The notes under the pieces: model-generated
Told to the model about the DNA's origin: nothing
What the model saw: only the letters and a program-made list of their open reading frames with translations
Databases searched by the model: none
DNA from: a virus
Taxonomy: Duplodnaviria; Heunggongvirae; Uroviricota; Caudoviricetes
IMG/VR virus record: IMGVR_UViG_2547132254_000003
Coordinates: 1-33,007 of that record
Strand: one strand, 5' to 3'
Length of the DNA stretch: 33,007 nt
Position numbers and translations under genes: made by a program
Shown here: piece after piece, positions 1,358 through 26,124 of the stretch
Layout: each line of letters begins with the position of its first letter
Position numbering within the stretch: position 1 is the stretch's first letter

Positions 1358-1418
1358 GGCTATCACTCCGGAACGCGCCAGTTGCAGAATATCAACGACA
1401 ACTGGCGACGGTTGAACA

Positions 1419-3890: not shown

Positions 3891-4013
3891 TTTGTTTTAA
3901 CCTCATTACAGATTTAAGGATGAACAAATCCCTGCCATTGCTGGCATATAAGAATCAAATCTGATGTATTCATTAAGCTGAATGTCGTATTGTGGCAGTT
4001 ATTTTATTGCTGC

Positions 4014-4235
4014 TCACCATGACTCTGCTTTTACAGGTAAACCATCACGACCAAGGAAGACTTTAATCATGGTTTCCTTAATACAGTGTTGTGTGGAAAA
4101 ATCACGAATATAGAGCCGTTGTTTTTTAATGTTGTTTACCGAAGCAATATATGTTCTTCCTTTATGAATAACATAATCACCGGGAGTCACGCACTGACGA
4201 GGAATCTCATCAGTTCCGAAGTGATGAGCAATCAT
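4014..4235 (-). CDS. Small protein (about 73 aa) directly downstream of DicF; possible Kil/DicB-position cell-division inhibitor
   Basis: ORF track gives 4014..4247; the internal ATG at 4235 has GGAG upstream. Function is inferred only from position downstream of DicF (as dicB is in Qin) and from a 73-aa size like Rac KilR; the protein does not match my recollection of DicB. Confidence 0.45.
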
Positions 4236-4414
4236 AATTATCTCCATTTTTACAAATGAACTTTGTTGATGCGGTGCCTGGTGCCTCCAGGTGACGTTAA
4301 CCAGTTAACAATTAACGCCGGATACAGAGAATCCACCCATAACACTGTTTTTGGTTTTAACTGTTCCGCGTGCGCTCAGCCGCATTCACCACATCACAAA
4401 ATTCACTTTAAAAA

Positions 4415-4467
4415 GGGCGGCAGAGCAGTCACGGAGTAAAACTGATACCGCCAAACGTCACCAGAAA
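4415..4467 (-). ncRNA. dicF: DicF-like small RNA (53 nt) followed by a T-run
   Basis: Reverse complement of 4415-4467 reads TTTCTGGTGACGTTTGGCGGTATCAGTTTTACTCCGTGACTGCTCTGCCGCCC followed by TTTTTA, which matches my memory of E. coli Qin DicF. Located in the leftward early operon. Confidence 0.65.
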
Positions 4468-4800
4468 ATTGATAACAGAGGGCGTTGCAGCGGGGTTGTC
4501 ACTTAAGCGTATGGTCAACCTGACAACCCGGTGTCCTCAACGGGGAAGGAATAACCCCGCCATACTTACCGCCGCGCCATTTCGCGGAGTGCCACAACCG
4601 GAAGCGCACGGTCGACGAAAATTTAACGACAGGCTATCTATGAACCAACAACTTCGCCGTGCGCTTTCGCGTTATGCCCTGACTTTTCAGGGAGATATCC
4701 TTTCAGTAAACTGTCAGTGCCGGATGCTCACCCGTGTCCGGCGCACGCACTCCACCTCACCCGTGGAGAACTCCTTAATTACTAACCCTCAGGAGGATGA

Positions 4801-5077
4801 AATGGGGTTTGATGTCAATGAAACTCTTAACTCTCTTATACGGAAAATTAATGATTTTGATAAAACACTACAGCATGCTGCGGCGCGTAGTGATATAACA
4901 TTGTTAGCAATTTCATACCTTGCATCTGCCATGAATAAAGATGAAACGGTACGAAAGAATCTCGTTGATTATATCGACTCGCTTCAGCCGGGCACTTTCA
5001 ACCCTGAGAGCTTCAATCATGAGAAAGAGCATGTTAAATCTGTAATTAATTCTCTTGTTTTGAATCAAAAGAATTGA
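4801..5077 (+). CDS. Hypothetical protein, about 92 aa, AT-rich, opposite in orientation to the early-left operon
   Basis: ATG at 4801 preceded by AGGAGG at optimal spacing. The upstream part of the 4469..5077 frame overlaps the DicF region, is GC-rich and has no good start, so only the 4801 start is called. 3' end overlaps the convergent gene 5046..5375. Confidence 0.4.
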
Positions 5078-5375
5078 TGCTTCTTGTTACGAAGCAATTT
5101 TCAAGGGGTTCTATCCGAATCCCTTTCTTTTCCATTAACAAGCCAAACCCCTTATTAATGATGTCCATTAGATCCAGGAAGTATTTTTCATGTAAATCCT
5201 GGTTATCAGAGAGCTGCTTCTCTTCGTACAGACCGATAAAGGCACGACGCACGTTACCGGATATAGTATCGATGGTTTCTTTTTCTACGGTACTCAGGTC
5301 AAGAGTCGCCAGTTGGGAACGAACTATATTCGCTGCCATTTCCTGGAATTGCATTGGTAAATCTTTAAATTCCAT
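5046..5375 (-). CDS. Hypothetical protein, 109 aa, early-left operon
   Basis: ATG at 5375 with GAGG 7 nt upstream; 22-nt gap from the stop of the upstream gene (5398), consistent with an operon. No recognisable motif. Confidence 0.55.
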   Translation of the reverse strand: MEFKDLPMQFQEMAANIVRSQLATLDLSTVEKETIDTISGNVRRAFIGLYEEKQLSDNQDLHEKYFLDLMDIINKGFGLLMEKKGIRIEPLENCFVTRSINSFDSKQEN

Positions 5376-5397
5376 TATTAGCCTCGTTGGTTAGCTA

Positions 5398-5616
5398 TTA
5401 ACGCGGGTATGTAATCATTCTGGCAATGCTTAATGCCGCTGCTTTTTCCAGCCTGGTGATATCCTGCTCCAGAGCGGACAGATTTTCAGCCTGCTTAGCC
5501 CTGGCTTCATTGGCCCATTTCAAATCCTGCGCTGCATTAATTTTCTGGCGCATCCACTCATAAAGTTCATCATCGGTATAGTCTGGCGCGATGATGACAG
5601 GTTCTCGTTTCTGCAT
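5398..5616 (-). CDS. Hypothetical protein, about 72 aa, early-left operon
   Basis: ORF track starts at GTG 5655; the internal ATG at 5616 has AAGGAG 5 nt upstream. Coiled-coil-like C-terminus. Confidence 0.5.
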   Translation of the reverse strand: MQKREPVIIAPDYTDDELYEWMRQKINAAQDLKWANEARAKQAENLSALEQDITRLEKAAALSIARMITYPR

Positions 5617-5687
5617 GTCAGCTCCTTGTGGTTCGCATTGCCTGCTTTTAACCACGTCAGGCGAGGTGGTATCCTCTGAGGGGTCTG

Positions 5688-6044
5688 TTACTCGAGAGGA
5701 AATTGGTTATGAATACAATCAAGTTTTCTTGCCCAGAATGTGGTGGCGAAGTCTTTGACACATCCTTTAAGCCGCAGGGCTCTGACAGTTTCGCGGGAGC
5801 CATCTGCAAAAATTGTGGTCACCTTGTAACTGAAGATGAGTCCTCGCAGTTCGATGACGAAATCGTTGACAATATCTTCGGTGCACTCACCAGAGACTTT
5901 CTGAAATAAAGACGCATACCGCTTAGTTACCGCTCTGATAACTCTTACCTGTCCGGCAATGGCGCTGATGTCAATATAAAGCGCCATTGCTGCTTCTTTG
6001 CCGATCCCGTGATGCCTTCCATTCTGATGTTTGACTTCGCCCAC
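5688..6044 (-). CDS. Hypothetical protein, 118 aa; would be the first gene of the leftward early operon
   Basis: GTG start with AGAGGA upstream; operon context supports it, but it overlaps a plausible + strand zinc-ribbon ORF, so one of the two is probably not real. Confidence 0.3.
   Translation of the reverse strand: MGEVKHQNGRHHGIGKEAAMALYIDISAIAGQVRVIRAVTKRYASLFQKVSGECTEDIVNDFVIELRGLIFSYKVTTIFADGSRETVRALRLKGCVKDFATTFWARKLDCIHNQFPLE
5709..5909 (+). CDS. Small zinc-ribbon protein, about 66 aa (alternative to the overlapping - strand ORF)
   Basis: CPECGG ... CKNCGH four-cysteine motif with zinc-ribbon spacing; acidic C-terminus; GAGAGGA about 9 nt upstream of the ATG at 5709. Confidence 0.3.
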   Translation: MNTIKFSCPECGGEVFDTSFKPQGSDSFAGAICKNCGHLVTEDESSQFDDEIVDNIFGALTRDFLK

Positions 6045-6233
6045 TGAGAAATCCTCTGTTTCCCCTTAACGCCGGGGTAGCGGAACAAAAACCTGCTGCA
6101 TAGTTATTAAAGTTGAACCCTGCCGTCATGTTCTTACGCCTCGGGCTGGCTACTTAACCCCTGACCACTGCCTGGTAACTCGAAGTATTGCCCTGCATTC
6201 TGTGGGGCGGGGTGGGTTGGTATGAAAAGAAGG

Positions 6234-6271
6234 ATACCCATAGGTATTTAAAAAGTAAATACCCATGGGTA
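6234..6271. promoter_or_regulatory. Putative left operator (OL) palindromes
   Basis: ATACCCATAGGTAT (6234-6247) and TACCCATGGGTA (6260-6271) are palindromes with TACC/GGTA arms, located just downstream of the repressor gene's 3' end and upstream of the leftward operon. Confidence 0.35.
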
Positions 6272-6313
6272 AATTTTTGCGGTGTCTTAACTGGTGACTA
6301 GTTGTTTGGTGAG

Positions 6314-6733
6314 CTATGATGCGTTTTGTGCTTTCTTTTTACGGATTTCTTCGTAGATCATATTGTAATACTGTTTTTTCTCTTCAAGAGTTTTTAATAA
6401 TTTATCCGCTTCACTTTCTGGCAGTTCGTCTAAGAGATCTAAAAAAATACGTTGTCGTGGCGTTAGAACCCTTGTTTCATAACTGGAGGCTGTGTTCGTT
6501 GATGATGAAACGATACCATCCATCCATCCCCGGGGTAACCCAAAGGACTCTTCGATAATCTCCACCATATCATCAGCGATCCGTTTTTTTCCCTTTTTCC
6601 CCTCTGGGTACAACATTCTTGATACATAAGAAGGCTCGCGCCCGATCTTTCTGGCCACGTTAACCGCTTTACCATCGCATTTCTCATCACGAATTTTGAT
6701 GAGTTGCTGTCGTCTAAATTCATATTTGTCCAT
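6314..6733 (-). CDS. Prophage repressor (CI/RacR-like HTH protein), 139 aa
   Basis: Divergent from a Cro/YdaS-like gene; flanked on both sides by TACC-n-GGTA palindromes; N-terminal region has HTH-like character. Family from context and motif reading. Confidence 0.65.
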   Translation of the reverse strand: MDKYEFRRQQLIKIRDEKCDGKAVNVARKIGREPSYVSRMLYPEGKKGKKRIADDMVEIIEESFGLPRGWMDGIVSSSTNTASSYETRVLTPRQRIFLDLLDELPESEADKLLKTLEEKKQYYNMIYEEIRKKKAQNAS

Positions 6734-6752
6734 AGGTAAATAATAGATGCGA

Positions 6753-6809
6753 TTACCGCAAGGTAAACAACCTGTGGGTATTGACTTTTGTTTACCTGTG
6801 GGTATTCTT
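6753..6809. promoter_or_regulatory. Putative right operator/promoter region (OR/PR) between the divergent repressor and cro-like genes
   Basis: TTACCGCAAGGTAA (6753-6766), CCTGTGGGTAT (6771-6781) and TACCTGTGGGTA (6793-6804) share the half-site seen at the left operators; TTGACT at 6781-6786 is a candidate -35 for rightward transcription. Confidence 0.4.
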
Positions 6810-6833
6810 TGCTGTGTTTACTAAGGAGTAGCT

Positions 6834-7115
6834 ATGGAAGAATTAAGAATATTTCTCAATTCTCTTTCGTCAGATGAACAGCGTATGTTTGCATGCGAGT
6901 GTGGTACCAGCATCGGTTATCTAAGAAAGGCATTGAGTAAAGGTCAAGTGTTAGGGGCATCGTTATGTGTCCTTATTGAGCGAGCCAGTAATGGTGAAGT
7001 TACACGTCAGCAACTAAGGCCTTTTGATTGGATGAATATTTGGCCCGAGCTGGAAGATACCAAAACGTTAACACAACCACTTTCTAGGAGCTTGATTCAT
7101 GAAAATCAAGCATGA
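6834..7115 (+). CDS. Cro/YdaS-family HTH regulator, 93 aa
   Basis: ATG with AAGGAG upstream; ERASNGEV...QLRPFDW pattern resembles Rac YdaS (ERATRGEV...ELRP); divergent from the repressor. Confidence 0.65.
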   Translation: MEELRIFLNSLSSDEQRMFACECGTSIGYLRKALSKGQVLGASLCVLIERASNGEVTRQQLRPFDWMNIWPELEDTKTLTQPLSRSLIHENQA

Positions 7116-7524
7116 ACACATCCGCATGGCGATGAATGCCTGGGCGCGTCCTGATGGCGAAAAAGTTCCAGCAGCTGGAATAACCCAGGCTTATTTTGAG
7201 TTGGGTATGACGTTCCCAGAACTGTATGACGACAGCCATCCGGAAGCCCTGGCTCGCAATACCCAGAAAATTTTCCGCTGGGTAGAGAAAGACACCCCTG
7301 ATGCTGTTGAAAAAATGCAGGCTCTGTTACCGGCGATCGAAAAGGCGATGCCGCCTTTGCTGGTGGCCCGTATGCGCAGCCACAGTTCTGAATATTACCG
7401 TGAGATCGTCGAACGGAGGGATCGGCTGGTGAAGGATGTCGATGATTTTGTTGCGTCAGCGGTTGTTTTGTATGACCAGATGAATCGCGGCGGCCCGGCA
7501 GGGAATGCTGTGGTGATGCACTAA
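7099..7524 (+). CDS. YdaT-like protein (CII-position regulator), 141 aa
   Basis: Begins MKIKHEHI and ends ...VVMH, as I recall for Rac YdaT; sits between the cro-like and replication genes. Confidence 0.55.
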   Translation: MKIKHEHIRMAMNAWARPDGEKVPAAGITQAYFELGMTFPELYDDSHPEALARNTQKIFRWVEKDTPDAVEKMQALLPAIEKAMPPLLVARMRSHSSEYYREIVERRDRLVKDVDDFVASAVVLYDQMNRGGPAGNAVVMH

Positions 7525-7546
7525 AAGCACGGTGTTCGGGGGTTTT

Positions 7547-8509
7547 ATGAGCAGCAAGCTTCATGGTCTTGTCTGGGAAGGGTGCGCCTTCACCGGCATG
7601 ATCTTATCCAGGGTGGCGGTTATGGCCCGTCTTGCAGACTACAGCAATGACGAGGGCGTGTCATGGCCTGCCATTGAAACTATCCGGCGTCAGATCGGTG
7701 CAAGAAGTGAATCCACAGTGAAATCGGCTATTGCAGAACTGGCGAAAGAGGGCTGGCTGACGAAGGAAGAGCGTAAGGTCGGTGGGCGTAATGTAAGCAA
7801 TATCTATCGGCTTAATGTGGAAAAACTCGAAGCAGCTGCGGCGGCGGCGCGTGAGTCATATAAACCGAAAAGAAAAATTAGCCCGGCAAAAAATGACCCG
7901 TTAACAGTTGACCCGTCAAATATTGACCCCTCAACGGTTGACCCGTCAAATTTTGATGGATCAACTGTTGATAAAAAACTGCCGATTAGGGGGGCGATGA
8001 TTGACCCCGATCCGTCAGTATTAAAACCTGATCCGTCAGATAAAAGATCTTCTTGTCCGGACGCTTCGCAACCGGACCCGCAGACGGCTGAACAGGATTT
8101 TTTAACCCGACACCCTGACGCGGTTGTGTTCAGTGCGAAAAAACGCCAGTGGGGAAGTCAGGAAGATTTGGTGTGCGCACAGTGGATCTGGGGACGAATC
8201 GTGAGTCTTTACGAGCAGGCGGCCAGCTATGATGGCGAGATCACTAGACCGAAAGAACCCAACTGGACAGCATGGGCCAATGACGTTCGCACAATGCGGA
8301 TGCTGGATGGCAGAACTCACAGACAAATTTGTGAAATGTTTGGGCGTCTCCAGCGGGATTCGTTCTGGGTAAAAAACATCATGAGTCCGGCAAAACTCCG
8401 GGAAAAATGGGATGAACTGGTTATCCGCCTGGGGCGTTCGCCTGCGCAGCGTTGCGTGAATCACATTTCTGAACCGGACACTGAAATACCGCCGGGATTC
8501 AGGGGGTGA
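7547..8509 (+). CDS. Replication initiator (lambda O-like / YdaU-like), about 320 aa
   Basis: Position upstream of a DnaC-like loader; N-terminal HTH-like domain; contains an internal array of 15-bp iteron-like repeats encoding a D-P-S/T-rich linker, as the lambda origin lies inside O. ORF track starts at GTG 7532; ATG at 7547 used. Confidence 0.65.
   Translation: MSSKLHGLVWEGCAFTGMILSRVAVMARLADYSNDEGVSWPAIETIRRQIGARSESTVKSAIAELAKEGWLTKEERKVGGRNVSNIYRLNVEKLEAAAAAARESYKPKRKISPAKNDPLTVDPSNIDPSTVDPSNFDGSTVDKKLPIRGAMIDPDPSVLKPDPSDKRSSCPDASQPDPQTAEQDFLTRHPDAVVFSAKKRQWGSQEDLVCAQWIWGRIVSLYEQAASYDGEITRPKEPNWTAWANDVRTMRMLDGRTHRQICEMFGRLQRDSFWVKNIMSPAKLREKWDELVIRLGRSPAQRCVNHISEPDTEIPPGFRG
7893..7967. 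repeat. Iteron-like direct repeats (five units, 15-bp period), putative replication origin inside the initiator gene
   Basis: TGACCCGTTAACAG, TTGACCCGTCAA, TTGACCCCTCAA, TTGACCCGTCAA and TTGATGGATCAA start at 7893, 7908, 7923, 7938 and 7953; each unit has internal dyad symmetry; an AT-richer stretch follows. Confidence 0.55.
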
Positions 8510-8515
8510 CGTGTC

Positions 8516-9262
8516 ATGAAAAACATTGCGGCAGTTGGGGTTCTTGAACGTATTCGCAGACTTGCACCACAGGGGTCGGTTCCACCGTACCGGACGGTGG
8601 AGGAGTGGCGGGAATGGCAACTTGCTGAAGGACGAAAACGCAGCGAGGAGATTAACCGCCAGAATCGCCAGTTGCGGGTGGAAAAAATCCTGAATCGTTC
8701 GGGCATCCAGCCTCTGCACAGCAAATGCTCGTTTGCAAATTATCAGGTGCAGAACGACGGGCAAAAATACGCGCTGAGCCAGGCCAAATCCATAGCTGAC
8801 GAACTGATGACCGGGTGCACGAATTTTGTGTTCAGCGGTAAAACCGGCACCGGGAAAAATCACCTTGCAGCGGCGATGGGCAACCGGCTGATGGTGAAGG
8901 GGCGCAGCGTGATTATCGTCACCGTGTCTGACGTCATGAGCGTGTTGCATGACAGCTACGACAACGGCAAATCCGGGGAAAAATTTTTACAGGAGCTTTG
9001 CGGGGTTGATTTGCTGGTCCTGGATGAAATAGGCGTTCAGCGGGAGACGAAAAACGAGCAGGTGGTATTGCACCAGATAATTGATCGCCGGACAGCATCA
9101 CTGTGCAGTGTCGGGATGTTAACAAACCTGAATCATGCCGCAATGAGTACGCTTCTTGGTGAGAGGATTATGGACCGCATGACCATGAACGGTGGTCGAT
9201 GGGTGACGTTTAACTGGGATAGCTGGCGTCCAAATGTCAGCAATATGAGGGTTGTGAAGTAA
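8516..9262 (+). CDS. DnaC-like helicase loader (IstB-type AAA+ ATPase; YdaV-like), 248 aa
   Basis: Walker A FSGKTGTGKNHLAAAMG and Walker B LLVLDEIG; position after the initiator; same length as Rac YdaV. Confidence 0.85.
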   Translation: MKNIAAVGVLERIRRLAPQGSVPPYRTVEEWREWQLAEGRKRSEEINRQNRQLRVEKILNRSGIQPLHSKCSFANYQVQNDGQKYALSQAKSIADELMTGCTNFVFSGKTGTGKNHLAAAMGNRLMVKGRSVIIVTVSDVMSVLHDSYDNGKSGEKFLQELCGVDLLVLDEIGVQRETKNEQVVLHQIIDRRTASLCSVGMLTNLNHAAMSTLLGERIMDRMTMNGGRWVTFNWDSWRPNVSNMRVVK

Positions 9263-9283
9263 TTTTGTCCGGAGGAAATTTTA

Positions 9284-10054
9284 ATGGAAACCGTATCTGA
9301 CGCACTGAAAGCACTGAAAAAAGCCTCTTCACATGTGGTGGCAGCTCGCCTTGGAATCAGTCGTGAAGAGGCTGTCAACGAGCTGTGGGAACTCAAAAGA
9401 AAAGGCGTCGTTGATAAAACTGGTCACACCTGGTTTCTGGCTGGCGAAGGTGAATCCCGGGTAACCGAAGAGCGGCCAGTAAAATCTGAAGCACAGGATA
9501 TGCTGACCGGGGAGGTCGAACAAAAAGTTACCGCAGACATGATGATTGAGTTTATCGGTCAGGATGGGGCTAAAACGTGTGAGGAACTGGCGGGTAAGTT
9601 CGGTGTCAGTACTCGCAAGGTTGCTTCCACGCTGGCGGTGGTAACCGCAACGGGGCGGCTGGCACGCGTTAATCAGAACGGTAAATTTCGTTACTGCATG
9701 CCGGGCGATAATTTACCAGCAGAGCCGAAAGCCGCGCTGGTAACGGAAAGTGATGGTAAGGCCTTTCCTCAGCCAGCAGGTGCTGCGTTACCAGTCCGGG
9801 AAGCCGCAACACAGGAAGAAATTAAAACAGAAACTGTGGCGGACATTGTGCAGCCGTTGCCATCGTTTACCGAAACGCAAGCAGATGAGCTGATTTTTCC
9901 GTCCCTTCGCAGGGCAAACCTGGCGCTGCGCAGGGCGAAAAGTGATGTTCAGAAGTGGGAGCGAGTCTGCGCCGCGCTGCGGGAGCTGAACAAGCACCGG
10001 GATATTGTTCGACAGATTACTGATTCTTCCCGCCGTGTTGTATCGGAAAAGTGA
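9284..10054 (+). CDS. Hypothetical phage protein, 256 aa
   Basis: ATG with GGAGGA upstream; no motif recognised. Confidence 0.5.
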   Translation: METVSDALKALKKASSHVVAARLGISREEAVNELWELKRKGVVDKTGHTWFLAGEGESRVTEERPVKSEAQDMLTGEVEQKVTADMMIEFIGQDGAKTCEELAGKFGVSTRKVASTLAVVTATGRLARVNQNGKFRYCMPGDNLPAEPKAALVTESDGKAFPQPAGAALPVREAATQEEIKTETVADIVQPLPSFTETQADELIFPSLRRANLALRRAKSDVQKWERVCAALRELNKHRDIVRQITDSSRRVVSEK

Positions 10055-10069
10055 TTGCCGGAGGCGCTT

Positions 10070-10495
10070 ATGGCAAAAGTATTTACACAAGAAGAGCGGG
10101 AAAAAATTAAAGGGCAGGTTGTTGAACTTGTACGTCTGAGCGGTCGCGAGACGTTGCGGCAACTGGAAGCCAGGACAGGTGCGACAAGATATCTGATGAG
10201 TGTTCTCGCCAGAGAGCTGGTTGCCAGTGGCGATGTATACAACTCTGGTTACGGGTTATTCCCGTCTGAACAGGCGCGTAAGGACTGGCAAAATGCTCGC
10301 AAAAAACTCTCAAGGGCAAAGGTGAAGAAACCTGCAGTGGTTGATCCGGACCTTATCTGGTCGTTACCAGACGGCGAAATACGCCGCTACGACAGGCGCC
10401 TGAATATAATCTGTCGCGAGTGCCGGAAGAGCGAAGCTATGCAGCGTGTACTGGCATTTTATCAAGGAAATGTTAGGTATTTTAGACGTTACTAG
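10070..10495 (+). CDS. Hypothetical phage protein, about 141 aa
   Basis: ATG at 10070 with GGAGG upstream (ORF track begins at 10055); cysteine pair CRECRK near the C-terminus. Confidence 0.5.
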   Translation: MAKVFTQEEREKIKGQVVELVRLSGRETLRQLEARTGATRYLMSVLARELVASGDVYNSGYGLFPSEQARKDWQNARKKLSRAKVKKPAVVDPDLIWSLPDGEIRRYDRRLNIICRECRKSEAMQRVLAFYQGNVRYFRRY

Positions 10496-10648
10496 ATTAA
10501 AGAGCATTAGTTCAGATGTGAATTGACATTTTCATGGCGCAGGGTAGAGCCAGCGTGGTTGTCCGCTTTGCGTCAAAACCAGATATTACCAGATTTAGAC
10601 ATATATTCCCGATAGACCTGCTCTGATGCTACACTCTGTGCTATTTTC

Positions 10649-11335
10649 ATGACCCCAATAAAAATATTTATGACTATTGCTGATTTCAAACGGCCTAAAT
10701 TGGAGCTCCCAAACGGGGCAAACAAACTACTACTGCACTCTTGCTGTGCTCCATGTTCCGGTGAAGTGATGGAGGCGCTTCAGGCCTCGGGAATCGACTA
10801 CACCATCTTTTTCTACAACCCGAACATTCATCCTCAGAAAGAGTATTTAATTCGTAAGGATGAAAATATTCGCTTTGCTGAACAACACGGCGTGCCGTTT
10901 ATCGATGCTGATTACGACACCGACAACTGGTTTGAACGTGCCAAAGGAATGGAATGGGAGCCTGAGAGGGGGATCCGTTGTACCATGTGTTTTGACATGC
11001 GTTTTGAGCGGACAGCGTTGTACGCTGCTGAAAATGGTTTCAGTGTGATCAGCAGTTCACTGGGCATTTCACGCTGGAAAAATATGCAGCAGGTTAACGA
11101 GTGTGGGCGGCGAGCTGTTGCGCATTATCCGGGTATGGTGTACTGGGATTATAACTGGCGCAAGCAGGGCGGCTCGTCCCGTATGATTGAAATCAGCAAG
11201 CGCGAAAAATTCTATCAGCAGGAATATTGTGGCTGTGTGTATTCTCTGCGCGATACCAATCTACACCGCAAATCTCAGGGACGCCCTCTTATCAAAATTG
11301 GCCAACTCCACTACGGAAAAGAAGAGAAGGAGTGA
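10649..11335 (+). CDS. DUF208/QueH-like protein (epoxyqueuosine reductase-like), 228 aa
   Basis: N-terminal [11 protein letters not shown] cysteine motif and further conserved cysteines (CTMC, CGC) recalled from the QueH family; candidate promoter TTGACA ... TACACT in the upstream intergenic region, so it looks like a moron. Confidence 0.5.
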
Positions 11336-11514
11336 TTTTATGGATCACCTTTCTGATTGATTTTATATTGGCGAGGTAACGGGAGTTAAGTAGAATGGCT
11401 GCGGGTGCTTGAGGCTATCTGTCTCAGGCATGAACACCAAAGGCAGATAGAGAAAAGCCCCAGTTAACATTACGCGTCCTGCAAGACGCTTAACATTAAT
11501 CTGAGGCTCAATCT

Positions 11515-11727
11515 ATGAACGGCAAATCTAGGTTAGCCTCTTACGTGCCGAAAGGCAAGGAGAAGCAGGCTATGAAGCAGCAAAAGGCGATGTTAATCGC
11601 CCTGATCGTCATCTGTTTAACCGTCATTGTGACGGCACTGGTAACGAGGAAAGACCTCTGCGAGGTACGAATCCGAACCGGCCAGACGGAGGTCGCTGTC
11701 TTCACAGCTTACGAACCTGAGGAGTAA
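11515..11727 (+). CDS. mok: Mok-like in-frame leader ORF overlapping hok, 70 aa
   Basis: In-frame upstream extension of the Hok ORF with GAGG upstream, analogous to chromosomal mokC/hokC organisation. Confidence 0.45.
   Translation: MNGKSRLASYVPKGKEKQAMKQQKAMLIALIVICLTVIVTALVTRKDLCEVRIRTGQTEVAVFTAYEPEE
11572..11727 (+). CDS. hok: Hok/Gef-family type I toxin, 51 aa
   Basis: MKQQKAMLIALIVICLTVIVTALVTRKDLCEVRIRTGQTEVAVFTAYEPEE: single TM helix plus the conserved RKDLCEV-IRTGQTEVAVFTAYE core of Hok/Gef; AAGGAG upstream of the ATG. Confidence 0.8.
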   Translation: MKQQKAMLIALIVICLTVIVTALVTRKDLCEVRIRTGQTEVAVFTAYEPEE

Positions 11728-11790
11728 GAGACCTGGCGGGGGAGAAATCCCTCGCCACCTCTGATGTGTCAGGCATCCTCAACGCACCCG

Positions 11791-11799
11791 CACTTAACC
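11791..11799. repeat. Left copy of the 9-bp target site duplication (CACTTAACC) of IS10
   Basis: Identical 9-mer immediately flanks both ends of the IS10 element. Confidence 0.8.
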
Positions 11800-13128
11800 C
11801 TGATGAATCCCCTAATGATTTTTATCAAAATCATTAAGTTAAGGTAGATACACATCTTGTCATATGATCAAATGGTTTCGCCAAAAATCAATAATCAGAC
11901 AACAAAATGTGCGAACTCGATATTTTACACGACTCTCTTTACCAATTCTGCCCCGAATTACACTTAAAACGACTCAACTGCTTAACGTTGGCTTGCCACG
12001 CCTTACTTGACTGTAAAACTCTCACTCTTACCGAACTTGGCCGTAACCTGCCAACCAAAGCGAGAACAAAACATAACATCAAACGAATCGACCGATTGTT
12101 AGGTAATCGTCACCTCCACAAAGAGCGACTCGCTGTATACCGTTGGCATGCTAGCTTTATCTGTTCGGGCAATACGATGCCCATTGTACTTGTTGACTGG
12201 TCTGATATCCGTGAGCAAAAACGGCTTATGGTATTGCGAGCTTCAGTCGCACTACACGGTCGTTCTGTTACTCTTTATGAGAAAGCGTTCCCGCTTTCAG
12301 AGCAATGTTCAAAGAAAGCTCATGACCAATTTCTAGCCGACCTTGCGAGCATTCTACCGAGTAACACCACACCGCTCATTGTCAGTGATGCTGGCTTTAA
12401 AGTGCCATGGTATAAATCCGTTGAGAAGCTGGGTTGGTACTGGTTAAGTCGAGTAAGAGGAAAAGTACAATATGCAGACCTAGGAGCGGAAAACTGGAAA
12501 CCTATCAGCAACTTACATGATATGTCATCTAGTCACTCAAAGACTTTAGGCTATAAGAGGCTGACTAAAAGCAATCCAATCTCATGCCAAATTCTATTGT
12601 ATAAATCTCGCTCTAAAGGCCGAAAAAATCAGCGCTCGACACGGACTCATTGTCACCACCCGTCACCTAAAATCTACTCAGCGTCGGCAAAGGAGCCATG
12701 GATTCTAGCAACTAACTTACCTGTTGAAATTCGAACACCCAAACAACTTGTTAATATCTATTCGAAGCGAATGCAGATTGAAGAAACCTTCCGAGACTTG
12801 AAAAGTCCTGCCTACGGACTAGGCCTACGCCATAGCCGAACGAGCAGCTCAGAGCGTTTTGATATCATGCTGCTAATCGCCCTGATGCTTCAACTAACAT
12901 GTTGGCTTGCGGGCGTTCATGCTCAGAAACAAGGTTGGGACAAGCACTTCCAGGCTAACACAGTCAGAAATCGAAACGTACTCTCAACAGTTCGCTTAGG
13001 CATGGAAGTTTTGCGGCATTCTGGCTACACAATAACAAGGGAAGACTCACTCGTGGCTGCAACCCTGCTTACTCAAAATCTATTCACACATGGTTACGTT
13101 TTGGGGAAATTATGAGGGGATCTCTCAG
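11800..13128 (+). mobile_element. IS10 (IS4 family), 1329 bp, intact, with terminal inverted repeats
   Basis: Left end CTGATGAATCCCCTAATGATTTT (IS10 outside end), right end reverse complement CTGAGAGATCCCCTCATAATTTCCCC (inside end); length 1329 bp; flanked by a perfect 9-bp direct repeat. Confidence 0.9.
11907..13115 (+). CDS. IS10 transposase, 402 aa
   Basis: Full-length ORF, MCELDILHDSLYQFCPELHLKRLN... matching my recollection of IS10/Tn10 transposase almost residue for residue; no frameshift or stop. Confidence 0.9.
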   Translation: MCELDILHDSLYQFCPELHLKRLNCLTLACHALLDCKTLTLTELGRNLPTKARTKHNIKRIDRLLGNRHLHKERLAVYRWHASFICSGNTMPIVLVDWSDIREQKRLMVLRASVALHGRSVTLYEKAFPLSEQCSKKAHDQFLADLASILPSNTTPLIVSDAGFKVPWYKSVEKLGWYWLSRVRGKVQYADLGAENWKPISNLHDMSSSHSKTLGYKRLTKSNPISCQILLYKSRSKGRKNQRSTRTHCHHPSPKIYSASAKEPWILATNLPVEIRTPKQLVNIYSKRMQIEETFRDLKSPAYGLGLRHSRTSSSERFDIMLLIALMLQLTCWLAGVHAQKQGWDKHFQANTVRNRNVLSTVRLGMEVLRHSGYTITREDSLVAATLLTQNLFTHGYVLGKL

Positions 13129-13137
13129 CACTTAACC
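13129..13137. repeat. Right copy of the 9-bp target site duplication (CACTTAACC) of IS10
   Basis: Identical to 11791-11799. Confidence 0.8.
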
Positions 13138-13208
13138 CGCTTCGGCGTTTTTTCCGTTGATTAACTCTAGTTATTAGAGAACCGAACTTTTATTGATGGG
13201 GCAGGGAG

Positions 13209-13601
13209 ATGAAGAAACTTGTTTTAGTCGCAGGTGTAATGATTGCAACAGTAATGTTGGGAGGGTGTGCAGCAAAGATCGATCCAGCGTTGAAAGCAGA
13301 AGCAATGAAGCCACTAACATGTAATGATGAAAAGCAATGTGACTTTTATTGGAAACGAGCGCAATTCTGGTTGGCTAATAATTCCTCATGGAAAATTCAA
13401 ACGGCGACAGACACGCTAATTTCCACTTATAATCCCTCTCCAAATAGTCCATTCCTCGCTTATCAAGTGAGTAAAATGCCAAATGAAGATGGATCCTCAA
13501 GAATTTTCATCAAGCCTTTTTGCGATAATATGTTTGGCTGTCAACCAAACCCCTATCAGGCAGTTGTTTCCTTTAAAAACTTCGTTAAAACAGGGCAGTA
13601 G
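13209..13601 (+). CDS. Predicted lipoprotein, 130 aa, unknown function (moron)
   Basis: Signal peptide with lipobox LGGC; two extra cysteine pairs (CNDEKQC and CDNMFGC) suggesting periplasmic disulfides; GGGAG upstream; own terminator downstream; AT-rich surroundings. Confidence 0.6.
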   Translation: MKKLVLVAGVMIATVMLGGCAAKIDPALKAEAMKPLTCNDEKQCDFYWKRAQFWLANNSSWKIQTATDTLISTYNPSPNSPFLAYQVSKMPNEDGSSRIFIKPFCDNMFGCQPNPYQAVVSFKNFVKTGQ

Positions 13602-13800
13602 TGTATAGCTTGGACGATAAATTATTAGTGAAAACGCCGTAAACCCTCACCCAATGTGGACTAAGTCTATCAAACATGACTGTGATGATTAGTCCGTAGT
13701 TGTTGTCTATGAAATCTGGATTGAGTCAGGGTTTAATCCAATAATTATTCTATCGTTCCTTTACAAGTCCGGTATATTACTTTCAGTTTGTTTTAGCATA

Positions 13801-13824
13801 CCCGCTTCGGCGGGTTTTGTTTTT
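13801..13824 (+). terminator. Rho-independent terminator (CCCGC-TTCG-GCGGG plus T-run)
   Basis: Perfect 5-bp GC stem with UUCG tetraloop followed by TTTTGTTTTT. Confidence 0.6.
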
Positions 13825-13896
13825 CCTGGCATTCTGGTTTACAATTCGCACGCCAGCCTGAACAACTGGCACCTGCTGCGCCAGCAGAGACAACCG

Positions 13897-14175
13897 ATGG
13901 CGCACGATACCAAATTACACAATTCTGATGATTCTGCCGTCTTTGCCAGCAGGCACGGGCGGCGTTCCCGCACTTTCAAATCTGACTGGTTCCAGCATGA
14001 CCCATGTACTGAAGAACAGGCCGAATGGCTAATTCATAACTATCGCAGACGCGGATACGAGATTAAGAAAGCCCTCAGCCTCGATTATCGTCACTGGATA
14101 ATCTATGTCAGGCTCCCTTATTCCGAACGCCCACCGCGCCCATCCCGCACATACCAGCAACGGATCTGGAGGTAA
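13897..14175 (+). CDS. Hypothetical protein, about 92 aa, translationally coupled to the downstream DUF968 gene
   Basis: Its TAA stop abuts a GTG start preceded by GGAGG. Start codon uncertain. Confidence 0.4.
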   Translation: MAHDTKLHNSDDSAVFASRHGRRSRTFKSDWFQHDPCTEEQAEWLIHNYRRRGYEIKKALSLDYRHWIIYVRLPYSERPPRPSRTYQQRIWR

Positions 14176-14176
14176 C

Positions 14177-15226
14177 GTGCGGATATTACTTCGACCTGTT
14201 CTGGTACCGGAACTCGGGCTGGTGGTCCTTAGGCCGGGCCGTGAATCCATGCAAGTATTTCATAACCCTCGAGTGCTGGTGGAGCCTGAACCGAAAAGCA
14301 TGCGCGGTCTGCCGTCCGGAGTCGTCCCTGCCGTTCGCCAGCCGCTGGCGGAGGATAAATCATTACTGCCATTTTTCAGCGATGAGCGGGTGATTCGTGC
14401 TGCTGGCGGCGCTGGGGCGCTGTCTGACTGGCTGTTGCGTCATGTCAAATCCTGCCAGTGGCCTCATGGTGACTATCATCACAGTGAAATCGTCATACAT
14501 CGTTACGGTACCAGCGCGATGGTGTTGTGCTGGCACTGCGACAACCAGTTGCGTGACCAGACATCCGAATCACTCGGGCAACTTGCTCATCAAAACCTGT
14601 CAGCATGGATGATTGACGTCATACGCCATGCAATGAATGGCACGCAGGAGCGGGAATTGTCGCTGGCTGAATTATCTTGGTGGGCGGTCTGCAATCAGGT
14701 GGCGGACGCGCTTCCGGAGGCAGTATTACGTCGTTCTCTGGGGGTACGTGCGGAAAAAATCCGCTCCTTGTACCGCGAAAGCGACATCGTACCGGGAGAG
14801 CAGACCGCCACCAGCATACTGAAGCAGCGCACAAAAAATCTTGCGCCGTTGCCTCATGCCCACCAGCAACAGAACCCACCACAGGAAAAGACGGTGGTAT
14901 GCATCACCGTTGATCCGGAGTCTCCGGAATCTTTCATGAGGCGACCTAAACGTCGCCGTTGGCTAAATGAGAAATATACGCGCTGGGTGAAGACACAGCC
15001 GTGTGCGTGTTGTGGTCAGCCAGCCGACGATCCCCATCACCTGATTGGTCACGGTCAGGGAGGGATGGGAACAAAGGCCCACGATATTTTCACGCTACCG
15101 TTGTGCCGGGAACATCACAACGAACTTCATGCGGATCCGCTGGCGTTCGAAGAAAAGCATGGTTCCCAGGTTGATTTAATTTTTCGTTTTCTTGATCACG
15201 CCTTTGCAACCGGCGTGCTCGGGTAA
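14177..15226 (+). CDS. DUF968-like protein (YdfU-like), about 349 aa, with a C-terminal Cys/His-rich nuclease-like motif
   Basis: C-terminal CACCGQ...HHLIGHGQGG...CREHHNELH motif; GTG start with GGAGG upstream; length equals that recalled for K-12 YdfU; lies upstream of rusA. Confidence 0.5.
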   Translation: MRILLRPVLVPELGLVVLRPGRESMQVFHNPRVLVEPEPKSMRGLPSGVVPAVRQPLAEDKSLLPFFSDERVIRAAGGAGALSDWLLRHVKSCQWPHGDYHHSEIVIHRYGTSAMVLCWHCDNQLRDQTSESLGQLAHQNLSAWMIDVIRHAMNGTQERELSLAELSWWAVCNQVADALPEAVLRRSLGVRAEKIRSLYRESDIVPGEQTATSILKQRTKNLAPLPHAHQQQNPPQEKTVVCITVDPESPESFMRRPKRRRWLNEKYTRWVKTQPCACCGQPADDPHHLIGHGQGGMGTKAHDIFTLPLCREHHNELHADPLAFEEKHGSQVDLIFRFLDHAFATGVLG

Positions 15227-15238
15227 AAGAGGTTACTG

Positions 15239-15598
15239 ATGCGTATAGAGTTTGTTTTGCCTTATCCGCCGACGGTGAATACTTACTGGCGACGTCGTGG
15301 CAACACATATTTTGTATCAAAAGTCGGTGAGCGTTATCGCCGTGATGTGGCACTAATTGTTCGCCAGCAGCGGTTGAAATTAAACCTGTCCGGAAGGCTG
15401 GCAATAAAAATTATTGCAGAGCCACCGGATAAGCGCCGCCGCGACCTGGACAATATCCTGAAGGCACCACTGGATGCGCTGACGCATGCCGGACTTCTCA
15501 TAGACGACGAGCAGTTTGATGAAATCAATATTGTGCGCGGACTGCCTGTTCCTGGTGGTCGGCTGGGGATAAAAATCACAGAACTGGAGTGCGCATGA
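15239..15598 (+). CDS. rusA: RusA Holliday junction resolvase, 119 aa
   Basis: Conserved RRDLDN and GGRL motifs and overall similarity to E. coli RusA; AAGAGG upstream. Confidence 0.8.
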   Translation: MRIEFVLPYPPTVNTYWRRRGNTYFVSKVGERYRRDVALIVRQQRLKLNLSGRLAIKIIAEPPDKRRRDLDNILKAPLDALTHAGLLIDDEQFDEINIVRGLPVPGGRLGIKITELECA

Positions 15599-16284
15599 AT
15601 AACCAGTATTTACAGTTTGTGCGTGAGCAGCTCATTATCGCTACCGCTGATTTGAGTGGGGCAACAAAAGGTCAGCTTGAAGCCTGGCAGGAGAATGCCA
15701 TGTTTGATACAGGGCGTTACAGGCGTAAAAAAATCCGGTACCGCGATGAAGTGACTGGAAGAATGATAACGCGGGATAGTCCACCGATACCGGGAAAACA
15801 ATCACTGGCGAAAGGCTCATCAATTGCTCTGGTAAGTCAGGTTGAGTTTTCGACATCATCATGGCGACGGGCAGTTCTGTCTCTTGAAGAACATCATAAA
15901 GCCTGGTTGTTGTGGTGTTACAGCGGGAGTATTTGTTGGGAATATCAGATCGCGATAACACAGTGGGCGTGGAATGAATTTAATACTCAATCCGGTACCA
16001 GAAAAATTGCAGGGAAAACGCAGGAACGCCTGAAAAAATTAATCTGGCTGGCGGCGCAGGCATTAAAAGCAGAACTTTTTGGTGGGGAAGGTTATGAATA
16101 CCAGGAGCTGGCATTACTGGCGGGAGTGACAACTAAAAACTGGTCCAAAACATTTACTCGTCACTGGGTTGCAATGAAACACATTTTTCACCGACTTGAT
16201 AGTGAGGCTTTATTGTTTGTAATGAGAACACGTTCAAAACAAAAGGCGGCATTTTCAAAGCAAAGTGTTGCAAAAGTAGATTGA
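15595..16284 (+). CDS. Putative late-gene antiterminator Q, about 229 aa
   Basis: ATG overlaps the rusA stop (ATGA); followed by a promoter/terminator region and the lysis genes. Called by position; no motif recognised. Confidence 0.5.
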   Translation: MNNQYLQFVREQLIIATADLSGATKGQLEAWQENAMFDTGRYRRKKIRYRDEVTGRMITRDSPPIPGKQSLAKGSSIALVSQVEFSTSSWRRAVLSLEEHHKAWLLWCYSGSICWEYQIAITQWAWNEFNTQSGTRKIAGKTQERLKKLIWLAAQALKAELFGGEGYEYQELALLAGVTTKNWSKTFTRHWVAMKHIFHRLDSEALLFVMRTRSKQKAAFSKQSVAKVD

Positions 16285-16478: not shown

Positions 16479-16554
16479 GGCCCTTTAGCTCAGTGGTGAG
16501 AGCGAGCGACTCATAATCGCCAGGTCGCTGGTTCAAATCCAGCAAGGGCCACCA
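16479..16554 (+). tRNA. tRNA with anticodon CAU, Ile2 (lysidine)-like, 76 nt, CCA encoded
   Basis: Cloverleaf folds by eye; anticodon loop CUCAUAA; close to my memory of E. coli ileX. Ile versus Met cannot be decided from the anticodon alone. Confidence 0.75.
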
Positions 16555-16555
16555 G

Positions 16556-16632
16556 CCGCCACTAGCTCATCAGGAAAGAGCGTCAACCCTTTAAGTTGAG
16601 TGTGCGAGGTTCGAGTCCCCGGTGGCGGTCCA
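16556..16632 (+). tRNA. tRNA-like gene, 77 nt, noncanonical anticodon loop; identity uncertain
   Basis: All stems pair except one A-C mismatch in the T-stem; anticodon loop CCUUUAA has C at position 33 (normally U), giving nominal anticodon UUU; begins with C1-G72. Confidence 0.5.
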
Positions 16633-16634
16633 GT

Positions 16635-16710
<76 letters not shown>

Positions 16711-16713
16711 TAT

Positions 16714-16788
<75 letters not shown>

Positions 16789-17302: not shown

Positions 17303-17617
17303 ATGACTCAAAACTATGAACTGATTGTGAAAGGGATCCGCAATTTTGAGAATAAAGTTACGGTAACTTTAGCGTTACGGGACAAAAAACGCTTTGACGG
17401 TGAAATTTTTGGCTTGGACATCTCGCTGGACCGTGTTGAAGGTGCCGCGCTGGAGTTTTATGAGGCAGCAGCCAGAAGGAGCATCAGACAGGTCTTCCTG
17501 GATGTTGCTGCCGGGTTATGTGAAGGGGACGAGCTGTTGCCAGAAACGCGCCCCTGTTCAGAGGCGCGGTATACCATAAAAATTAACAGTTCTGATAACT
17601 CGATTACAGGTTGTTAG
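17303..17617 (+). CDS. Hypothetical soluble protein, 104 aa, between holin and endolysin
   Basis: ATG 4 nt after the holin stop with a GGAGAG-like SD; no TM segment; no motif recognised. Confidence 0.5.
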   Translation: MTQNYELIVKGIRNFENKVTVTLALRDKKRFDGEIFGLDISLDRVEGAALEFYEAAARRSIRQVFLDVAAGLCEGDELLPETRPCSEARYTIKINSSDNSITGC

Positions 17618-17672
17618 CTTTTTGCAGTTGGCTTTCCAGTATCTTTCATTGGTAGCATCCTGATAAATATCC

Positions 17673-18206
17673 ATGAGCGCAAAAATCAAATACGGCCTGT
17701 CAGCTGCTGTTCTGGCGCTGATTGCTGCAGGCGCGTCTGCTCCTCAAATACTTGACCAGTTTCTGGATGAAAAAGAGGGTAACCACACTACGGCATACCG
17801 CGATGGTTCCGGTATATGGACCATCTGTCGTGGTGCCACAATGGTGGATGGTAAGCCCGTCATACCGGGAATGAAGCTGTCGAAGGAAAAATGCGACCAG
17901 GTTAACGCTATTGAACGTGATAAGGCGTTGGCATGGGTGGAGCGCAATATTAAAGTACCACTGACCGAACCACAGAAAGCGGGTATAGCGTCATTCTGTC
18001 CCTATAACATTGGCCCCGGTAAGTGTTTCCCGTCGACGTTTTATAAGCGGCTGAATGCCGGTGATCGTAAGGGCGCATGCGAGGCGATTCGCTGGTGGAT
18101 AAAAGATGGTGGGCGCGATTGCCGCATACGTTCAAATAACTGCTATGGACAGGTTATTCGTCGTGACCAGGAAAGCGCATTAGCCTGTTGGGGGATAGAT
18201 CAGTGA
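17673..18206 (+). CDS. SAR endolysin (T4-lysozyme-like, phage 21 R type), 177 aa
   Basis: N-terminal signal-anchor-release hydrophobic segment ([15 protein letters not shown]); catalytic spacing E-x8-D-x5-T ([16 protein letters not shown]). Confidence 0.85.
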
Positions 18207-18670
18207 GCAGAGTCGCAGCGATTATTTATACTCTGGTTATCTGCACCATCGTCTGCCTGTCGTGGGCGGTCAATCATTACCGTGATAACGCCATCGCCTA
18301 CAAAGAACAGCGTGATAAAAAAGTCAGTGAGCTGAAGCAGGCGACTGCCACCATCGCTGACATGCAACAGCGTCAGCGTGATGTTGCTGCGCTCGATGCA
18401 AAGTACTCGAGAGAATTAGCCAATGCGAAAGCTGAAAATGAAACTCTGCGCGCTGATGTTGCCGCTGGTCGTAAGCGCCTGCGGGTCAATGCCAGTTGCT
18501 CCGCAGCCGTGCGTGAAGCCACCGGACCCACCAGCGTGGATAATGCAACCAGCCCCCGACTGGCAGACACCGCTGAACGGGATTATTTCACCCTCAGAGA
18601 ACGGTTGATGACGATGCAGAAGCAACTGGAAGGGGCACAGCTATACATTCGTGAGCAATGTCTCAGATAA
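18203..18670 (+). CDS. Rz-like i-spanin, about 155 aa
   Basis: GTG overlapping the endolysin stop; N-terminal TM helix then coiled-coil-rich periplasmic domain; contains an embedded Rz1-like ORF. Confidence 0.7.
18423..18608 (+). CDS. Rz1-like o-spanin (outer-membrane lipoprotein) embedded in Rz in a different frame
   Basis: Signal peptide with lipobox VVSAC; proline-rich mature part; entirely within Rz. Confidence 0.65.
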
Positions 18671-18848
18671 AAAACGGCCAAGGATAATCCGCTAAAGATT
18701 CGCCGGTGGCGAAAGAGAGCCAAGGTGTCAACCTACGCTATTACTTATGATAATGCAACAGACGAAGCGGGACATTCAGGTGCATAACAAAGCGTGGCAG
18801 GTGAACTGCAAACCTGAAAAGGCGCAAAAATCTGCGCCAGAATGGTAG

Positions 18849-19334
18849 TTATTTTGTGGTTTTGAAAAGTTTCATGTACTGATTGATAGGTTTTCCTGAG
18901 TAAGAATCTGTCCCTGGCTCAGGAGTATCAGATAAAACTTTTGCAGCTAATTTGTTGGAGGCTTGATTACCAACCCCGACAATAGCCTCTACATAGAATT
19001 CATTGAAGGAATTTCTAAATCCGTATTGCATTTCTTCAATGCTGGCGATGAGAAGTTGAGTACCGATGCCTTGCGCTTTATATTCATCGGCTACTGCATA
19101 GCCAACGCCAAAGCATGGTTTACCTTCAACAAACTCTGCAGGGACATATATAGCAACACCTTTAACATTTTCTCCTTCAAAGAATGCATAAGTAAACCGT
19201 GGTGTACCCTCTGCATCATCCAAAAGCACCTTCATATTTGGGTGAACTATGCATGGTGAAGGCTTAATCAGACCATTAGAAAAGGCGTATTGAAAACTAA
19301 TTAATGAGTCTGTTGGATCAACGAGTTCTGGCAT
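18849..19334 (-). CDS. GNAT-family N-acetyltransferase-like protein, 161 aa (reverse-strand moron)
   Basis: Candidate acetyl-CoA-binding motif AQGIGTQLL; AT-rich gene and flanks; opposite orientation to the lysis and packaging genes; no partner ORF upstream. Confidence 0.55.
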   Translation of the reverse strand: MPELVDPTDSLISFQYAFSNGLIKPSPCIVHPNMKVLLDDAEGTPRFTYAFFEGENVKGVAIYVPAEFVEGKPCFGVGYAVADEYKAQGIGTQLLIASIEEMQYGFRNSFNEFYVEAIVGVGNQASNKLAAKVLSDTPEPGTDSYSGKPINQYMKLFKTTK

Positions 19335-19578
19335 TTTGAGTCCTATGTATTTTGATATAAGCGATTCAACATACTACTTTCTTACGTTTAATTCTTTAAC
19401 ATTAACGAGCCAGGATTCGAAATTTTGAAAAAGAGTAAAGTTTTTAATAATTCATTCAAAGCATATCGCATGTGCACATCTAAGAAAGGCTTTCAGCTGT
19501 GAGCCTGGGTAAACCGTAAACTTTCGGCGACTCTGCCGTGCGACAGGTTCACGTCTAACATGTCTAAAAGGAAGAGTT

Positions 19579-19779
19579 ATGAAGTTTCAGGTCGCTAAAC
19601 TGTATCGTGGTAAACATTTCGCAGGGTATGGGATTGCAGTTGATGGTGAGTTACTGGAAGGGCAGCTTTCCGCCAGGACAGAGTCACGCGGAGGCGAGCC
19701 ACCAACAGTCACTGTGACTTTCAGACTGACAGCAGAACATATCGAGAATCAGCCCGTCATTCAACTGAACAGGGGGTGA
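19579..19779 (+). CDS. Hypothetical protein, 66 aa
   Basis: ATG with AAGGAAGAG upstream; directly precedes the HNH endonuclease gene. Confidence 0.45.
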   Translation: MKFQVAKLYRGKHFAGYGIAVDGELLEGQLSARTESRGGEPPTVTVTFRLTAEHIENQPVIQLNRG

Positions 19780-19786
19780 GGTATTT

Positions 19787-20137: not shown

Positions 20138-20284
20138 TAACAGTTCCCATCTGTAGGGGAGGGGCGGGTCAAATCTCTGCAACCCTGGCTGCTCAGTACC
20201 GCCGCCTGACCTTTCCTCGCATCGCCGCAGGTTCGAAAACTTTTTTTTGGAATGTGATTAAATGATTGATAGGTAAAATCGATT

Positions 20285-24490: not shown

Positions 24491-24504
24491 GGATACTACT
24501 GACG

Positions 24505-25722: not shown

Positions 25723-25744
25723 CCACTCGTTGTTCAGTTACAGA

Positions 25745-25765: not shown

Positions 25766-25798
25766 ATGCCCGCACAGTGTTGCGGGCAGGAGTTTCTG

Positions 25799-26116: not shown

Positions 26117-26124
26117 GAGGAGAC

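Follow-up and report, generated by a model that had tools for sequence, protein, structure and literature searches.

Why would a phage carry an enzyme for the last step of a transfer RNA (tRNA) modification that its host already completes? The question is raised by a stretch of 33,007 nucleotides (nt) from IMG/VR record IMGVR_UViG_2547132254_000003 (positions 1-33,007; the whole stretch is called the window here and all coordinates are window positions), which by its gene content is an Escherichia coli lambdoid prophage of the Qin/Rac type, and which harbors a gene, queH, predicted to encode the epoxyqueuosine reductase QueH. E. coli has tgt and queA, cannot make the corrin ring itself and imports its cobalamin. 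It makes epoxyqueuosine (oQ) in tRNA, and the final step of queuosine (Q) synthesis depends on cobalamin; K-12 knock-outs of queG (yjeS) accumulate oQ (PMC4646009), which indicates that K-12 is without a back-up enzyme. QueG, one of the four enzymes of E. coli that depend on a cobamide (PMC11841063), needs cobalamin together with two [4Fe-4S] clusters (PMC4646009). QueH depends on iron and works without cobalamin (PMC13443448), and the presence of both in Staphylococcus aureus was read by the authors of that report as an adaptation to cofactor supply (PMC13443448). Since queG is present in every complete E. coli genome (5426 of 5426), the phage copy duplicates a host step, with a different cofactor need.

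We consider, with a probability of roughly 70%, that the phage gene encodes a working, cobalamin-independent QueH, carried as prophage accessory cargo, that would complete the conversion of oQ to Q without cobalamin. QueH, as an iron-sulfur enzyme, would reduce the oQ epoxide at position 34 of host tRNA-Asp, tRNA-Asn, tRNA-His and tRNA-Tyr to give Q; queH, placed where the replication module of the lambdoid prophage ends, would be accessory cargo; and where cobalamin is scarce, the phage enzyme would enable the completion of queuosine in lysogens or infected cells, QueG being cobalamin-dependent. From the features described below, we infer that phage QueH is enzymatically active, expressed in the lysogen and possibly of benefit to fitness.

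Identity of the queH product

The gene and the motifs that characterize its product are the following.

10670..11335, + strand: queH coding sequence, 221 amino acids, stop codon included in the coordinates (Pfam PF02677, PDB 7LC5 match, RefSeq name)
10742..10756, + strand: CCAPC motif with Cys25, Cys26 and Cys29 (Cys32, Cys33 and Cys36 of the 228-residue reading frame), aligning to Cys9, Cys10 and Asp13 of Thermotoga maritima QueH
10979..10990, + strand: CxxC motif (CTMC) with Cys104 and Cys107, aligning to T. maritima Cys87 and Cys90
11228..11236, + strand: CGC motif, Cys187-Gly188-Cys189, aligning to T. maritima Cys169 and Cys171

A DUF208/QueH-like gene had been proposed here from the DNA letters alone, and this proposal was borne out by a significant match to the Pfam QueH/DUF208 profile (PF02677; E 1.1e-65, 221.5 bits against a cut-off of 23.5 bits) that spans essentially the full length of the model (positions 1-174 of 175). 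The sequence also matches T. maritima QueH (PDB 7LC5; E 7.8e-22, ca. 30% identity), and RefSeq names the same gene in an identical prophage of E. coli strain D10 "epoxyqueuosine reductase QueH" (WP_000150294.1), a name that it gives to this gene in about a thousand E. coli genomes. The cysteines were compared in two alignments: one combines T. maritima QueH, the window protein and 84 diverse cluster representatives, and the other is made up of 31 sequences from relatives that share 35-73% identity with the window protein. All seven family cysteines (Cys25, 26, 29, 104, 107, 187 and 189 in the 221-residue numbering) are present in the window protein and invariant in the second alignment, as are 11 further residues (N52, E58, Y59, R62, E99, R103, R111, K137, Q184, G188 and S192). 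The cysteine motif of 11 residues on which the original prediction had relied is encoded at 10727-10759, and every cysteine expected to ligate the metals of a QueH, predicted to be a [4Fe-4S] cluster plus an adjacent iron, is in place. The position of T. maritima Asp13 is occupied by Cys in the window protein, as it is in 70 of 76 aligned sequences; Cys being the majority form, it is T. maritima that is the exception.

The predicted fold leads to the same family. An AlphaFold model built on the 31-sequence alignment scored 93.9 for the predicted local distance difference test (pLDDT) and 0.90 for the predicted template modelling score (pTM), and the top five matches of a Foldseek search of this model against the PDB were all T. 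maritima QueH entries (9D86, 7LC5, 7LC7, 9DCO and 9DEU; E 3e-15 to 6e-13), with target-normalised template modelling (TM) scores of 0.90-0.92 and root-mean-square deviations (rmsd) of 1.3-2.0 Å (TM 0.92 and rmsd 1.3 Å for the best three). The next fold class, TtuA-type sulfurtransferases, followed at E ~1e-5, weaker by ten orders of magnitude. The product is a conventional QueH with no added domain, and its identification as QueH is supported by profile, cysteines and modelled fold alike. T. maritima QueH (PDB 7LC5, 7LC7, 9DEU) resembles it in the full-length profile, the CCxPC, CxxC and CGC cysteine motifs and the fold; unlike the window protein it has Asp13 in place of a cysteine, shares only ca. 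30% identity, is chromosomal rather than phage-carried and, in the crystallised chain, is without the extensions of ca. 20 residues at the N-terminus and 20 residues at the C-terminus.

The listed open reading frame (ORF; 10649..11335, + strand) encodes 228 amino acids and starts 21 nt, i.e., seven codons, 5' of the ATG at 10670. The latter is probably the better start, which would make the listed frame over-long by seven codons, since RefSeq uses it and all relatives, the chromosomal ones included, conserve it, and since the ATG at 10649 is absent from one prophage variant (L003). At the other extreme, PHROG 3217 ("unknown function") corresponds only to residues 41-228 of the 228-residue ORF, and many database proteins begin at Met41 of this ORF and thus are without the CCAPC motif. 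A distinct short form of the protein was considered and rejected, as the Met41-start proteins that were inspected (P0123, P0133 and P0181) are truncated, frameshifted or decayed calls.

Position and transcription of queH in the prophage

From its start, the prophage contains an integrase, an exonuclease, dicB with the DicF RNA, and repressor and cro-like genes; these are followed by YdaT, O-like, DnaC-like, DUF1627, DUF977, queH, hok/sok, DUF968, RusA and the Q antiterminator, then by four tRNAs and by the lysis, terminase, head and tail genes. The presence of the DicF antisense RNA in the dicB region (4415-4466, - strand; Rfam, 76.7 bits) assigns the prophage to the Qin/Rac group. Strain D10 contains an essentially identical prophage, from the integrase through the tail fibres and adjoining tRNA-Ser and mtfA, which confirms the earlier assumption that queH is carried by a phage. 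The gene occupies a slot between the replication module, the last gene of which encodes a DUF977 protein, and the hok/nin/Q region, and is separated from the DUF977 gene by 153-174 nt, depending on the start chosen. The constant 5' neighbour of queH, in all inspected E. coli prophage contexts and in the phage HannyBb, is the DUF977 gene, which carries the annotation Ren-like in HannyBb. The Rac prophage of K-12 has the same replication-module genes and no queH; it ends straight after ydaW (the gene 3' of ydaV), i.e., it is without the slot that houses queH. The features that bear on the position and transcription of the gene are listed below.

10055..10495, + strand: DUF977 gene, end of the replication module (Pfam DUF977, E 9e-28)
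10627..10635, + strand: candidate extended -10 element TGcTACACT, 43 nt 5' of ATG 10670, conserved in most prophage variants
10639..10647, + strand: second candidate extended -10 element TGcTATTTT, overlapping, 31 nt 5' of the start
11325..11354, + strand: hairpin across the stop codon with a U-rich tail (UGAUUGAUUUUAUAUU)
16479-16788: cluster of four tRNAs, anticodons CAU, UUU, UGU and UCC

The gene had been credited with a sigma70 promoter of its own, and this claim stands in part: a scan for canonical -35/-10 pairs was negative (see below), and what relatives back is an extended -10-like element. We consider that queH is probably transcribed from this candidate promoter, TGcTACACT, with a predicted transcript start near 10642-10645. 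Erwinia, Scandinavium, Kluyvera, Enterobacter, Symbiopectobacterium and others have TGCTACA(C/A)T or TGCTATATT at a near-equal distance upstream of queH, in flanks that cannot be aligned with the window. Among 67 non-redundant chromosomal relatives, TGnTAnnnT starts between -56 and -38 in 18, against 1.08 on average and at most 6 in shuffled sequences, and elsewhere in the 120 nt upstream of the same genes only three matches occur. Providencia is represented by a single metagenome-assembled genome (L048), which has no extended -10-like motif at that distance. The most economical reading of this pattern is that queH travelled with its ancestral promoter. The evidence for the second element, TGcTATTTT, is weaker, as it is found in the window and in four other prophage loci (L002, L004, L005 and L015) and is absent from L003 and from the chromosomal relatives. 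We discarded the perfect TTGACA at 10525-10530 as a promoter, since no suitable -10 hexamer lies 16-18 nt 3' of it. Rfam searches (at gathering level over the whole window, and at E<=1 over 10450-10720) revealed no riboswitch or leader RNA for queH, the sole match in 10450-10720 being a chance microRNA hit (E 0.13).

At the 3' end, the hairpin at 11325-11354 may act as a weak intrinsic terminator; it forms part of the RNA minimum-free-energy fold of 11320-11420, a region with a z-score of only -1.1. From the in-line position of the gene, read-through into queH from the early rightward operon is expected on induction. This leads to the alternative that the same enzyme serves lytic growth of the phage, by converting oQ to Q for efficient and accurate decoding of NAU-rich late genes, a reading that overlaps with ours without mutual exclusion and that we regard as rather unlikely, if worth keeping in view. 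We know of no difference between oQ and Q in decoding, which counts against it. The arrangement itself is favorable: queH lies on the same strand as, and directly after, the cro/cII-like, O-like, DnaC-like, DUF1627 and DUF977 genes, with no terminator predicted in 10000-12000. Codon usage points the same way: of the Asn, Asp, His and Tyr codons, which Q-tRNAs read, NAU makes up 66% in the lysis and structural genes (17303-33007) and 54% in early and regulatory genes (1-16284), a modest skew that is measured within the window only. Moreover, infection by a Shewanella phage induces queG and is accompanied by a decrease of oQ and an increase of Q (bioRxiv 10.64898/2026.03.05.709803). The conserved promoter-like element, however, suggests expression that is independent of the lytic programme. 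The benefit may fall to the lysogen or to the lytic phage.

None of the four tRNAs of the cluster is a queuosine substrate. Their anticodons confirm the statement of the original prediction that none of them is of the queuosine (GUN) type and that a direct link to queH is unlikely. The first of them (16479-16554, anticodon CAT) is called tRNA-Met by ARAGORN and tRNA-Ile (lysidine-type Ile2) by RefSeq in the identical prophage. Two other genes of the prophage may be mentioned here: the DUF1627 gene (9284-10054) is intact in the window and annotated as frameshifted in the D10 prophage (L001 10886-11655), and a GNAT-family acetyltransferase gene (18849-19334, - strand), located between the lysis genes and the terminase, resembles a further accessory, moron-type gene.

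Spread, constraint and variable neighbours

The prophage gene is widespread. It was found in 995 of the 5426 complete E. coli genomes at 90-100% nucleotide identity (median one copy per genome, maximum two), with at least 80% of its length covered in 985 of the 995 carriers. These include O157:H7, sequence type 131 (ST131) and avian pathogenic E. coli (APEC) O18, and the accessions with the exact protein include O104:H4 isolates. The gene follows the DUF977 gene in six differing prophage contexts, and it occupies the same slot, annotated as "hypothetical protein", in Escherichia phage HannyBb, an isolated and viable phage. In IMG/VR, 189 contigs carry close relatives, and an alignment-based scan of 2.9 million contigs yielded ca. 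26 more loci; the 80 loci listed are all of the same E. coli type.

What follows the gene is far less constant. Comparison of the cargo slot in the window (11336-13600), in three other prophages (L003, L005 and L006) and in the IMG/VR loci (L095-L174) showed hok/sok, an NgoMIV-type restriction enzyme with a Dcm methylase, a Kiwa-like KwaB pair or a DUF1971 gene 3' of queH; in the 80 listed IMG/VR loci with an identical protein, hok/sok is downstream in 52 and the restriction-modification pair in 20. Just 3' of hok/sok, the window also contains a copy of the insertion sequence IS10 (11801-13127) that is not in the otherwise near-identical D10 prophage, with the RNA-OUT antisense RNA at 11845-11914 (- strand), the transposase at 11907-13115 (+ strand) and an alignment overlap that suggests a target duplication of ca. 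9 bp. On the other side of queH, a short methyltransferase fragment lies at the junction with the DUF977 gene in HannyBb (L002 5762-5968) and in strain 95-3322 (L004 4726-4911), which suggests that a former cargo gene was partly deleted there.

In these respects queH is similar to the moron and auxiliary-metabolic genes of lambdoid phages, i.e., a single host-type gene, unneeded for phage propagation, that sits between conserved phage modules with a candidate promoter and adjoins a variable cargo slot. It differs from them in lacking both a clear terminator and a contrast in composition, its GC content being 0.48 against 0.49-0.52 in the flanks.

The nearest copies outside phages are those of Scandinavium (92% identity), Kluyvera (91%) and Enterobacter (88-90%), which lie in varied chromosomal neighbourhoods without phage genes, while QueH of Erwinia (86%) and Providencia (84%) is encoded among core genes (purL/queH/glrK and tmcA/queH/purC, respectively). 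A comparison of 80 genome loci with the Erwinia, Providencia and phage contexts found hardly any common neighbours, so the chromosomal context of queH varies by genus. In one Enterobacter isolate, sp. ECC-175 (L019 1677-4669), a queH homologue lies ca. 1 kb 3' of icd, which is an integration site for e14 in E. coli K-12, and this copy may therefore sit on an island. Identity is a poor guide to recent transfer in this family, which is highly conserved (75-80% identity reaches Sphingomonas and Stenotrophomonas). A recent capture from Erwinia was rejected for this reason and because synonymous divergence (dS) is ca. 1 even to the nearest chromosomal relative, Scandinavium. Among the prophage copies themselves, dS is 0.11-0.45 and the ratio of nonsynonymous to synonymous divergence (dN/dS) is 0.046-0.09, and dN/dS between prophage queH and that of Scandinavium is 0.04. 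Prophage queH is thus under strong purifying selection, with the same constraint as the chromosomal copies, and divergence of up to 0.45 among prophage copies and of ca. 1 to Scandinavium implies that the gene has long been resident in phages. Chromosomal QueH of Enterobacterales shares with the window protein its length, its start and the strong purifying selection, and the copies of Scandinavium, Kluyvera, Enterobacter and Erwinia share the extended -10-like motif at the same upstream distance; the difference lies in the setting, chromosomal neighbourhoods there as opposed to a lambdoid early region here, in a host species that relies on QueG.

Given that queH is redundant with the core gene queG, adjoins a slot of cargo turnover and is decayed or truncated in a few copies, one may ask whether it is a neutral passenger, acquired through illegitimate recombination and functionless in both phage and lysogen. 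We find this improbable: the constraint (dN/dS ca. 0.05 over prophage copies diverged to dS 0.45) argues against a neutral passenger as well as against an altered function, nearly all carriers keep at least 80% of the gene, and the gene keeps its place as the cargo 3' of it varies. The nature of that cargo suggests another alternative, that queH takes part in defence or counter-defence, e.g., through an oQ/Q anticodon state that shifts sensitivity to anticodon nucleases targeting Q-tRNAs, as the genes immediately downstream in various prophages are hok/sok, the restriction-modification pair or the Kiwa-like KwaB. This is very improbable: the defence genes change while queH stays constant, which argues against a single system; the domain content of the protein is that of an ordinary QueH; and PADLOC gave no match for QueH or for four of five other window proteins (DUF977, two downstream ORFs and the GNAT gene), the fifth, DUF1627, having only a marginal match to a CARF model (E 8e-4).

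A last alternative is 7-deazaguanine modification of phage DNA or other non-tRNA chemistry. To our knowledge oQ, the substrate of QueH, occurs only in tRNA, which counts against it. Phage DNA with bases derived from preQ0 is known (PMC6884629), and the phage clusters responsible (DpdA with FolE, QueD, QueE and QueC) likewise derive from the queuosine pathway, but we consider such a role hardly credible here. The annotation of the D10 prophage, which runs from the integrase to the assembly of the tail fibres, has no DpdA/TGT, QueC, QueD, QueE or FolE, and QueH acts at the tRNA-specific end of the pathway. The protein shares 84-92% identity with QueH of bacterial chromosomes and gives no indication of relaxed or altered selection, and a 2019 survey of deazaguanine-modifying viruses was without QueA, QueG and QueH (PMC6884629). 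Thus, of the two roles envisaged in the original prediction, modification of host tRNA fits the data and 7-deazaguanine chemistry does not.

Queuosine completion with and without cobalamin

Set beside QueG (YjeS), the phage QueH is predicted to carry out the same reaction on the same tRNAs in the same cells, and differs in belonging to an unrelated protein family and in being independent of cobalamin. Several results weigh against the proposal that it completes Q for its host when cobalamin is scarce. We found no report of an E. coli phenotype that distinguishes oQ-tRNA from Q-tRNA, and the gut contains cobamides, so that a shortage of cobalamin may be uncommon. A consensus -35/-10 scan of 10000-12000 gave no site on the + strand 5' of queH, and its total of three sites is what chance would provide (2.8 expected); the hexamer of the candidate extended -10 element is altered in two prophage variants, to CACACT (L005) and TACACA (L003); and a terminator scan of the same interval returned none, the hairpin at 11325-11354 falling below its criteria. 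Decayed copies exist, such as P0123 with Cys-to-Tyr changes in the CxxC motif. Finally, an NCBIfam scan of the window protein found no matching model, which we do not count as contradicting QueH, given the RefSeq name and the strong Pfam match.

The QueH family, its structure and the database name of this protein are already known, and no unusual mechanism is implied; what we describe is an enzyme already known, in a carrier that has drawn little notice. Our literature search found no publication on phage-borne QueH, with Zallot 2017 and Li 2021, where prophage copies may be mentioned, lying outside that search. The 2019 survey of viral deazaguanine genes reported no homologues of QueA, QueG or QueH in the viruses analysed (PMC6884629), a statement that the phage queH qualifies. 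For annotation, PHROG 3217 and the "hypothetical protein" of HannyBb can now be named QueH. Only tentatively, and at clearly less than even odds, do we suggest that this is the first recognised phage enzyme from the tRNA-specific end of the queuosine pathway and that about one in five E. coli strains is cobalamin-independent for queuosine by way of a lambdoid QueH.

If this suggestion is true, phages act on the oQ to Q step, which is reported to be regulated during Shewanella phage infection (2026 preprint), and a measurable effect would be expected on the fitness of lysogens in B12-poor niches or on the translation of NAU-rich late genes. If the phage copy is active, B12-free completion of queuosine would be a strain-variable, phage-transmitted trait of E. 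coli, present in ca. 18% of complete genomes, among them O157:H7, O104:H4, ST131 and APEC strains, and it would bear on how tRNA modification in gut bacteria relates to micronutrient supply.

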